Positions 66 to 6,778 of a stretch of DNA of 8,797 bases are shown in pieces. A program made the position numbers and the translations under genes. Origin of the DNA: a virus (lineage: Duplodnaviria > Heunggongvirae > Uroviricota > Caudoviricetes); the IMG/VR virus record IMGVR_UViG_2740892212_000011; one strand, 5' to 3'. Under the pieces are notes generated by a model. The model searched no databases. It was not told where the DNA came from and saw only the letters and a program-made list of their open reading frames with translations. Within the stretch, counting starts at the first letter, position 1; every line of letters starts with the position of its first letter.

Positions 66-685
66 TGAACGTTCATTACGGCCCACAGAACAAATGGAAT
101 GAAGATGCCAAAAAAAATGCAGATATCTTGTTTGGCGCATCAGAACAATCTGCTCTGGCTATCATTCGGGACCATAAAGACAGCTTCAGTGAAAAAGATA
201 TTCAGCCTCTTTATCTGCGAAAAAGTATTTTACTGGTAAAGAAAGGTAATCCTAAAAATATCCGGAGTATTGACGACCTGACCAGACCCGGGATTGGCGT
301 AATTGTTAATGATGGTGGTGGTACCAGTAATACATCAGGCACTGGCGTCTGGGAAGATATTGCCGGACGTAAAGGGAATATAGAAACTGTCGCCGCAATC
401 CGAAAAAATATTATTTTATATGCGCCCAATAGCGGAACTGCACGTAAGGCTCTTGAGAATCAGCCTGAAGCAGATGTCTGGATAACCTGGGCTGACTGGG
501 CAGCCAGTAATCCAGAAATTGGTGATGTCGTGGAAATAGCGCCAGACTACGTGATATGGCGTGATATGAACATTACAGTACGTCAGGATGCAAATGATGA
601 AACCCGTCGATTTGCAGAATGGCTACAAACCGATGAAGCGGCGCCTGCATTCAAAAAATATGGCTGGACCAGGAAAGGCACTTGA
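66..685 (+). pseudogene. C-terminal ~206 codons of a periplasmic solute-binding protein (PBP2-type ABC-transporter substrate-binding fold), N-terminus removed by the IS1 insertion
   Basis: Reading frame is open from the IS1 junction to TGA 683-685 with no signal peptide or plausible start. Family call is from general sequence character only and is tentative. Confidence 0.55.
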
Positions 686-832: not shown

Positions 833-1023
833 CGAAAACGGCTTGCTGTAACGGCAGAGTTAAGTAGAATTGCTGCGGGTGCTTGAGGCTATCTGCCTTG
901 GGCATGAACACCAACGGCAGATAGATAAAAGCCCCACCCGACTATAAATCGAAGTGAGGCCCCTATATGCTCGTCACATATAGATTGCCTCTTACGGACC
1001 GAAAGGTCAAGGAGAAGCAGGCT

Positions 1024-1179
1024 ATGAAGCAGCAAAAGGCGATGTTAATCGCCCTGATCGTCATCTGTTTAACCGTCATAGTGACGGCACTGGTAACGAG
1101 GAAAGACCTCTGCGAGGTACGAATCCGAACCGGCCAGACGGAGGTCGCTGTCTTCACAGCTTACGAACCTGAGGAGTAA
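1024..1179 (+). CDS. hokD: Hok/Gef-family type I toxin (51 aa, single transmembrane helix)
   Basis: Translation MKQQKAMLIALIVICLTVIVTALVTRKDLCEVRIRTGQTEVAVFTAYEPEE matches HokD/RelF as recalled (HokC is very similar, so the symbol is not certain). SD AAGGAG 10 nt upstream; the downstream Rem-like/YdfU-like/Q gene order resembles Qin prophage. Confidence 0.8.
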   Translation: MKQQKAMLIALIVICLTVIVTALVTRKDLCEVRIRTGQTEVAVFTAYEPEE

Positions 1180-5932: not shown

Positions 5933-6008
5933 GGCCCTTTAGCTCAGTGGTGAGAGCGAGCGACTCATAATCGCCAGGTCGCTGGTTCAAATCCAGCAAG
6001 GGCCACCA
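5933..6008 (+). tRNA. ileZ: tRNA-Ile2 type (anticodon CAU, 5966-5968); Met cannot be excluded from the anticodon alone
   Basis: Manual cloverleaf: acceptor GGCCCTT/AAGGGCC, D-arm GCTC...GAGC, T-arm GCTGG-TTCAAAT-CCAGC, encoded CCA; close to E. coli ileX as recalled. One A:C mismatch in the anticodon stem. Confidence 0.8.
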
Positions 6009-6009
6009 A

Positions 6010-6086
6010 CCGCCATTAGCTCATCGGGATAGAACGCCAGCCTTCGAAGCTGGTTTCGCGGGGTTCGAGTCTCCGATGGCGGTCCA
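6010..6086 (+). tRNA. tRNA-Arg (anticodon UCG, 6044-6046)
   Basis: Manual cloverleaf: acceptor CCGCCAT/ATGGCGG, anticodon stem CCAGC/GCTGG, T-arm CGGGG-TTCGAGT-CTCCG, encoded CCA 6084-6086. Starts with C and has one D-stem mismatch, so the exact 5' end is uncertain. Confidence 0.65.
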
Positions 6087-6099
6087 TTATCGGTATTCT

Positions 6100-6176
6100 G
6101 CGTTGTTAGCTCAGCCGGACAGAGCAATTGCCTTCTAAGCAATCGGTCACTGGTTCGAACCCAGTACAACGCACCA
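6100..6176 (+). tRNA. tRNA-Arg (anticodon UCU, 6134-6136)
   Basis: Manual cloverleaf: acceptor GCGTTGT/ACAACGC, D-arm GCTC...GAGC, anticodon stem ATTGC/GCAAT, T-arm ACTGG-TTCGAAC-CCAGT, encoded CCA. Confidence 0.8.
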
Positions 6177-6316: not shown

Positions 6317-6778
6317 TTGGCTCACCCACCCAAAGGAACGTCACGATGTTTGGTATTTTTGGTAAAAAAAGCCCGCAGAGCGGCAACGGAAATTAAAAAG
6401 TTTGAAAAACGCGATCTGGCACAGGCGGTGATTAACGCCGCATACCTGGTGGCCTGTGCAGATGGTGAATGTGAGGCTTCCGAGAAAGCGAAGATCGAAC
6501 AGGTACTGCGTAATCAGCCAGCGCTGTCCGCGTTTACGTCAGAAATTAATGCGATGAGCGCAACCATTATCGGTCAGCTGGATACGAACTTTAAAATTGG
6601 TCGTCGTGCGGCGTTACGTGAGATCGAGGATGTGAAACACGATACGCGTGAAGCGGAAGATGTGCTGGATGTGGCGGTGGCCATTGCGGAGGCAGACGGC
6701 GAAATTGAGCCGGAAGAGCGCAAGGTGCTGGAAGAGATTGCCGGTGTTCTGGGTCTTCGTCTGGAGAATCACCTGTGA
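6317..6778 (+). CDS. TerB-family protein (two ADG-containing helical repeats); 5' end ambiguous because the SD-preceded ATG at 6346 is in a different frame, separated by an A7 tract (6364-6370)
   Basis: Repeats ...AAYLVACADGECEASEKAKIEQVL... and ...VAVAIAEADGEIEPEERKVLEEIAG... are typical of TerB domains. The long frame has only a TTG start with no SD; ATG 6346 has SD AAGGA 8 nt upstream but stops after 16 codons. Confidence 0.6.
   Translation: MAHPPKGTSRCLVFLVKKARRAATEIKKFEKRDLAQAVINAAYLVACADGECEASEKAKIEQVLRNQPALSAFTSEINAMSATIIGQLDTNFKIGRRAALREIEDVKHDTREAEDVLDVAVAIAEADGEIEPEERKVLEEIAGVLGLRLENHL

Follow-up and report, generated by a model that had tools for sequence, protein, structure and literature searches.

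A seven-adenine allele of the prophage gene tciA in Escherichia coli, a natural indel polymorphism near the gene start

TerB-domain proteins and the phage tciA-tciB module

In the phages P1 and P7, the gene of the TerB-domain protein TciA is followed by that of a small DUF3927 membrane protein. A CRISPRi screen has shown that tciA/B/C of P1 are non-essential (PMC10695390). The same tciA-tciB pair is present in the lambdoid phage JLK-2012. The TerB domain is furthermore found in TerB of the Klebsiella/IncHI2 ter operon (2JXU; PF05099). Searches of the literature on tciA/tciB in prophages and on TerB with DUF3927 yielded no study of the allele described below, or of the function of the module in lambdoid prophages.

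Here, a stretch of 8,797 nucleotides from the Caudoviricetes record IMGVR_UViG_2740892212_000011 of IMG/VR was analysed, which is called the window throughout. It carries a TerB-like gene directly followed by a DUF3927/TciB-like gene, which is the order of the tciA-tciB module. The product of the first gene matches Pfam PF05099 with 56.3-56.4 bits, above the gathering threshold of 24.4, and the match covers residues 25-137 of the protein read from a TTG codon or residues 26-138 of the fused form introduced below. A match to PHROG 632 ("tellurite resistance") has an E-value of 2e-66, and the 143 positions of this profile equal the length of the fused protein. In a phmmer comparison with the TerB structure 2JXU_A (E = 2.9e-8), residues 14-137 of the query were aligned to chain residues 20-144. 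Both ADGE...E acidic motifs of TerB are visible in the window protein, whereas its first 13 residues do not align to TerB. In contrast to TerB of the terZABCDE operon, the gene stands alone in a prophage together with tciB. At the DNA level, the pair of JLK-2012 is 94% identical to the window, and the match between P1/P7 and the window locus is weak (68% identity, 30% coverage).

The gene is a member of the TerB/TciA family and of the phage tciA-tciB module, and its N-terminal reading is the only departure from the family. Unlike tciA of P1/P7 and JLK-2012, the window allele contains an extra A and is modelled with a TTG start and a non-ancestral N-terminus. The ancestral start M-F-G-x-F-x-K-K does not lead from the ATG into the domain in this allele, and only TTG 6350 gives access to the domain. 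As a whole, tciA is an accessory, "moron"-type gene.

The window represents the late region of a lambdoid prophage with Q, methylase, a tRNA trio, tciAB and lysis genes; the complete order is hok/sok, DUF968, RusA, antiterminator Q, DNA methylase, three tRNAs, tciAB, holin, DUF1327 and lysozyme. At its left edge, an ORF at 128-685 (+) matches PF13531 (periplasmic solute-binding protein domain) only over the C-terminal two-thirds of the profile (70-226 of 227) and looks like a truncated gene. The hok/sok-type toxin-antitoxin locus follows at 877-1179 (+), where Rfam sok is matched at 877-1026 with 104.6 bits and an ORF resembling Hok ends at 1179 (MKQQKAMLIALIVICLTVIV...). Three tRNA genes lie between the methylase gene and tciA at 5933-6176 (+). 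The first of these is called Met (anticodon CAT) by ARAGORN and tRNA-Ile by PGAP in identical loci, and the second and third are Arg(TCG) and Arg(TCT). The middle one is absent or called "tRNA-OTHER" in some relatives.

On the other side of tciA, the GTG start of tciB at 6775 overlaps the TGA stop of tciA (GTGA), and tciB has a GGAG of its own at 6763-6766. Directly after the tciB stop, the sRNA STnc100 is strongly matched at 6948-7128 (+) with 116.8 bits (Rfam gathering score 47), followed at 7156-7184 by a terminator-like GC-rich hairpin with eight T. The tciAB genes may be co-transcribed with this prophage sRNA or simply be followed by it. In the identical locus of E. coli EC12, the PGAP annotation has, at about 7150-7445 (-) between tciB and the holin gene, a pseudogene for an incomplete, frameshifted "hypothetical protein", and this remnant shares the intergenic stretch with STnc100.

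The start of tciA and its ancestral frame

The features at and behind the start of tciA are collected in Table 1. A preliminary description of this DNA had assigned a good Shine-Dalgarno sequence to ATG 6346, a stop after 16 codons to its frame and a +1 position to the long TerB frame, and it had predicted that removal of one A from the homopolymer would fuse both frames. All of this is borne out by direct reading. The AAGGA motif, which is also conserved 5' of in-frame alleles, ends 8 nt before the ATG at 6346-6348 (+). The frame of this ATG encodes MFGIFGKKSPQSGNGN and ends at TAA 6394-6396, and the homopolymer consists of exactly seven A. The TerB frame (ORF 6317..6778) is +1 relative to the ATG, and with one A removed a protein of 143 aa results (MFGIFGKKARRAATEIKKF...). 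Proteins of this fused form with 143 aa are present in the databases (P0001, 98% identical).

The same description had the TerB frame begin only at a TTG without Shine-Dalgarno sequence, and here it needs correction. TTG 6317 lies in the TerB frame and indeed lacks such a sequence, but a second in-frame TTG at 6350 had been overlooked. It begins 4 nt after the ATG, overlaps it (ATGTTTG) and is 12 nt away from AAGGA. PGAP models the A7 alleles as 429 nt from TTG 6350 (MVFLVKK...) and the in-frame alleles as 432 nt from ATG; the identical EC12 locus is annotated as WP_001382054.1.

Table 1. Features at the start of tciA and downstream of it (positions in the window)
Feature	Position	Strand	Remark
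Shine-Dalgarno AAGGA	6333..6337	+	8 nt to ATG 6346, 12 nt to TTG 6350; read from sequence
Ancestral tciA start codon and remnant ORF	6346..6396	+	16 codons (MFGIFGKKSPQSGNGN, then stop) left by the frameshift
TerB-family/TciA-like CDS	6350..6778	+	RefSeq model from TTG 6350, 142 aa, MVFLVKKARRAAT...
A7 homopolymer	6364..6370	+	one base more than ancestral A6 (Lys-Lys codons AAA AAA)
GAG codon	6482..6484	+	intact in the window; TAG (nonsense) in most other A7 copies
tciB-like DUF3927 gene	6775..6933	+	Pfam PF13064, E = 1.4e-17; PHROG 1470 "TciB-like", E = 6e-28; PGAP

Since four A-runs of at least seven bases are present in the window, an A7 is not rare per se, and what makes this one significant is its location 18 nt behind a start codon conserved in homologues. 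A search with the fused protein returned 164 relatives. An alignment was made of 51 full-length homologues, which are 51-79% identical and come from Pantoea, Klebsiella, Enterobacter, Salmonella, Erwinia jumbo phages and others. Phenylalanine occupies position 2 in 46 and glycine position 3 in 45 of them, and nearly all read MFG.F.KK. Lys-Lys/Arg follows MFG throughout these distant homologues and is always in frame with the TerB domain. This speaks for the MFGIFGKK segment, whose lack of conservation had been named beforehand as an observation that would count against a broken frame. In-frame A6 alleles with flanks identical to those of the window exist as well (L004-L007), so that A7 does break the ancestral frame, as had been proposed. 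Because the distant homologues are in frame from MFG and the PHROG 632 profile is as long as the fused protein, ATG 6346 can be identified as the ancestral start, and the run was originally A6.

Distribution and inheritance of the A7 allele

A 551-nt region around the run is 100% identical to the chromosome of E. coli EC12, which is a complete genome. Of 5,426 complete E. coli genomes, 805 contain relatives of this region with 88-99% identity, at 2,778 places in all and with a median of 4 copies each. Direct reading showed A7 in EC12, at loci of two EDL933 assemblies, in the O157:H7 strain Gim1-1, in the seawater isolate MB06102 and in an O111:H11 strain. A 39-mer query with A6 returned 619 E. 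coli records, of which 116 had an exact A6 as best match. For the other 503, the best match was 97.5% identical, and the examples listed span 40 nt, that is one extra base. From this query, the prevalence of A7 in E. coli is estimated at about 500 of the 619 records that carry this type of head. A total of 184 contigs carry the exact 142-aa product, which is listed as multispecies Escherichia.

The check recommended in the preliminary description, a count of the run length at homologous loci, was performed by a pattern scan of IMG/VR that allowed 4-10 bases between exact flanks. The best 80 loci from the fused-protein query are biased to in-frame alleles and were left out of these counts. Among 96 contigs, 47 carry A7, 45 carry A6, 2 carry A5 and two have interrupted runs; no A8 was present. 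The two A5 contigs (L116, L155) have the same tciA head with unrelated sequence after about 10 codons, and their gene is replaced or truncated by rearrangement. Within EHEC and related E. coli, A7 is a frequent allele that hundreds of genomes of pathogenic strains carry, and it keeps a stable run length.

Haplotypes were defined over the 408 nt downstream of the run, which gave 16 A7, 14 A6 and 18 "K-type" haplotypes. The K-type head is TTCAAAAAGAAAACC and reads MFGIFKKKT. An A10 run as the basis of these MFGIFKKK alleles is ruled out by the DNA, which reads AAAAAGAAAA. The 5' background (AGA...ACG, "RRAAT") is the same in all 16 A7 haplotypes, and 12 of the 14 A6 haplotypes have another (CGA...GTG, "RRAAV"). 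Furthermore, the A7 allele is found behind at least three different upstream gene sets. This pattern fits a single insertion event followed by recombination among prophages. One A6 haplotype (L007/L159) has a backbone like that of A7 and could represent the ancestor as well as a revertant. The length scatter expected of a hypermutable tract is absent from the IMG/VR contigs and haplotypes.

Rarer frameshift alleles seem to be present in the same A-rich N-terminal region, as judged from protein sequences. A second A-run, the A5 at 6395-6399, overlaps the stop TAA of the ATG frame. The proteins P0032 and P0041 (MESSKRKPAERLRKLKKFEKR...) would be explained by an extra A in the A5 run and a reading from the +1 TTG. 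P0015 and P0103 (..NLQKKTRR..) fit the loss of a G in the AAAAAGAAAA head.

Some decay is suggested for the A7 lineage. The GAG-to-TAG change in tciA is carried by 30 of the 47 A7 contigs (6 of 16 haplotypes), in comparison to 2 of 45 A6 and 1 of 44 K-type contigs, and copies with TAG are flagged by PGAP as "internal stop" pseudogenes (loci L181, L182, L183). Within the classes, nonsynonymous and synonymous changes amount to 12:19 for A7, 14:40 for A6 and 10:66 for K-type. The comparison of A7 (12:19) with the in-frame classes (24:106) gives p = 0.03 in a Fisher test, in which the contigs are non-independent and O157:H7 is heavily sampled. This is a weak signal, and it is no more than suggestive of decay.

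Many IMG/VR loci share the nonsense codon (e.g., L092, L095, L100), and it occurs in a few in-frame copies, too. The substitutions A19V, Y29C and I76T are typical of A7 alleles and were considered as effects of relaxed selection. This was rejected, since the same residues are present on in-frame alleles (L007, L019). They therefore either predate the insertion or were exchanged by recombination.

Probable consequences for expression in the light of related systems

Translation initiation is optimal at a spacing of 5-9 nt from the Shine-Dalgarno sequence, UUG is a less efficient start codon and an overlapping AUG competes with it. We consider it probable that A7 is a stably inherited A6-to-A7 insertion in the Lys-Lys codons 7-8 of a prophage tciA, most likely a hypomorph that is tolerated or slowly decaying, and that it is neither an error nor a switch nor a recoding site. 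The ancestral gene starts at ATG 6346 and encodes MFGIFGKK-ARRAAT... with 143 aa, a frame that ends after 16 codons in the A7 allele. Ribosomes recruited by AAGGA would mostly start at the optimally spaced ATG and yield a 16-residue peptide. The only source of TerB protein would be the weaker start at TTG 6350, a non-ATG codon with 12-nt spacing that overlaps the ATG. Due to the non-optimal spacing, the lower efficiency of UUG and the competing AUG, a reduced synthesis of TerB is likely, a view that is based on spacing and codon identity. The codon TTG 6350 results from the overlap of the Phe-Gly codons (ATG TTT GG) and is also present in in-frame alleles; as such a by-product, it has not evolved as a start.

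The A7 product would carry MVFLVKK in place of MFGIFGKK. Some function is plausible for it, as the hydrophobic-then-Lys-Lys character of the N-terminus is kept and the Pfam domain is unaffected. The inactivating mutation that had been offered as one of three explanations therefore holds in part only. The ancestral start is uncoupled and a nonsense codon is enriched in A7 copies, but TTG 6350 preserves an ORF of 142 codons, which RefSeq calls intact.

A second explanation is a neutral start shift. In this case, the gene would be fully functional from TTG 6350, with adequate amounts of the MVFLVKK-TerB protein, and maintained by selection, and merely seven N-terminal residues would have been replaced. 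The full 142-codon ORF is kept in 10 of the 16 A7 haplotypes, including that of the window, and in three upstream prophage contexts, the allele is very common, and RefSeq annotates an intact 142-aa protein. Chemically, the new N-terminus resembles the former one, and the TerB domain, which begins at residue 25, is untouched. The protein could thus be fully functional, which, like the intact ORFs, also counts against a hypomorph. Homologues that keep A7 and start at the TTG, which had been named in advance as evidence against a broken frame, do exist by annotation. This reflects a choice of gene model and does not attest use of the TTG. Against the neutral shift, the optimally spaced ATG competes with the overlapping TTG, and the strong conservation of MFG in homologues suggests that the N-terminus matters. 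Moreover, the spread of the nonsense codon has mainly involved A7 alleles, and the N:S ratio is raised in A7 alleles. A neutral start shift thus appears unlikely, and reduced expression of a tolerated or slowly decaying gene is preferred.

A more elaborate idea combines the A7 run with the A5 run at 6395-6399 into a mutational or recoding "dimmer" in EHEC prophages. Rare reversion from A7 to A6, or else +1 decoding at a low level, would tune or switch the expression of TciA and TciB, and the ATG together with its Shine-Dalgarno sequence would be kept by selection for this purpose. We regard this idea as highly unlikely.

A further explanation is phase variation, the slipped-strand on/off switching that had also been put forward, in which mispairing would switch tciA and the coupled tciB between on (A6) and off (A7) at high frequency. 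A6 and A7 both occur in E. coli populations with about equal counts in IMG/VR, the A6 allele of L007/L159 on an otherwise A7-typical backbone could be a reversion, and other rare indel alleles are present in the same A-rich N-terminal region. Nevertheless, the run length follows linked SNP haplotypes and is not scattered. In a contingency locus, the length would vary independently of the haplotype and take several values. Here, intact genes have only A6 or A7, each of which is tied to its haplotypes; A8 is missing and A5 is restricted to disrupted genes among the 96 contigs, and for this reason phase variation is unsupported. All loci read from several O157:H7 complete genomes, including the two EDL933 assemblies, have A7, and tciB possesses its own Shine-Dalgarno sequence. 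The haplotype and run-length data contain no evidence of switching at this run. Seven A are short for a contingency tract, and mismatch-repair-proficient E. coli strains are not known to employ phase variation by homopolymers. Switching is therefore considered very improbable.

A similarly low probability is given to recoding, in which a +1 ribosomal frameshift or the transcriptional loss of one A would restore MFGIFGKK-ARRAAT from A7. On A AAA AAA, perfect re-pairing of tRNA-Lys in the +1 frame is possible, homopolymeric A-runs are known slippage sites (PMC1088944, PMC5009743), and the ancestral ATG and its Shine-Dalgarno sequence are fully kept in all A7 alleles. However, the distant homologues are all in frame, so the arrangement is not conserved and does not represent a programmed trait of this family. 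Behind the run, the 0-frame codon in the A site is AGC, which is neither a stop nor rare, and the sequence has no Shine-Dalgarno-like stimulator 3 nt upstream of the run, unlike prfB. For these three reasons, a programmed +1 frameshift of the prfB type seems unlikely.

Concerning transcriptional slippage, E. coli RNA polymerase requires a minimum of 7 T according to PMC6260861, and the number is still higher for A, with more than seven A for a measurable effect. Selection against slippery runs is typically evident at 9 nt (PMC1088944). A7 is below the thresholds of about 9 or more that result from both sources. A minus-1 frameshift on the A-run was rejected as well, as it leads away from the TerB frame.

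Finally, a sequencing or assembly error confined to the window, which had been offered as another of the three explanations, can be dismissed: homopolymers are the commonest sites of indel errors in long-read and 454 assemblies, but the identity to EC12 over 551 nt and the presence of A7 in many independently sequenced complete genomes and 47 IMG/VR contigs leave practically no room for it.

A7 is an ordinary natural indel polymorphism, a fixed frameshift or start shift, in a known accessory gene, whose sequence and gene model are already contained in RefSeq. It raises no broader question, and its relevance lies in annotation. RefSeq models WP_001382054.1 and WP_001303509.1 as intact proteins of the TerB family with a TTG start. 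The seven residues at their beginning are a frameshifted ancestral N-terminus, and the respective copies may be poorly expressed. Studies on the function of tciA-tciB in EHEC should use an in-frame allele (A6 or the MFGIFKKK type) as reference. The A7 copies, including the many that also contain the TAG nonsense codon, should be treated as possible hypomorphs or pseudogenes.

In comparison to known systems, tciA shares with the contingency loci of Neisseria, Haemophilus and Campylobacter a mononucleotide run near the 5' end that sets the frame. In contrast to these, the tract of tciA is short (7), its length is fixed within each allele lineage and only two states are found on intact genes. A frameshift inside an A-run of a gene that annotation would call broken is also known from tssM of Citrobacter rodentium (PMC4256274) and from the examples in PMC1088944. 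These slippage-rescued genes have runs of A9-A11, whereas the seven A of tciA remain below appreciable slippage of E. coli RNA polymerase (PMC6260861). Unlike the slippage-rescued genes, the ORF of tciA is kept open by an alternative start.
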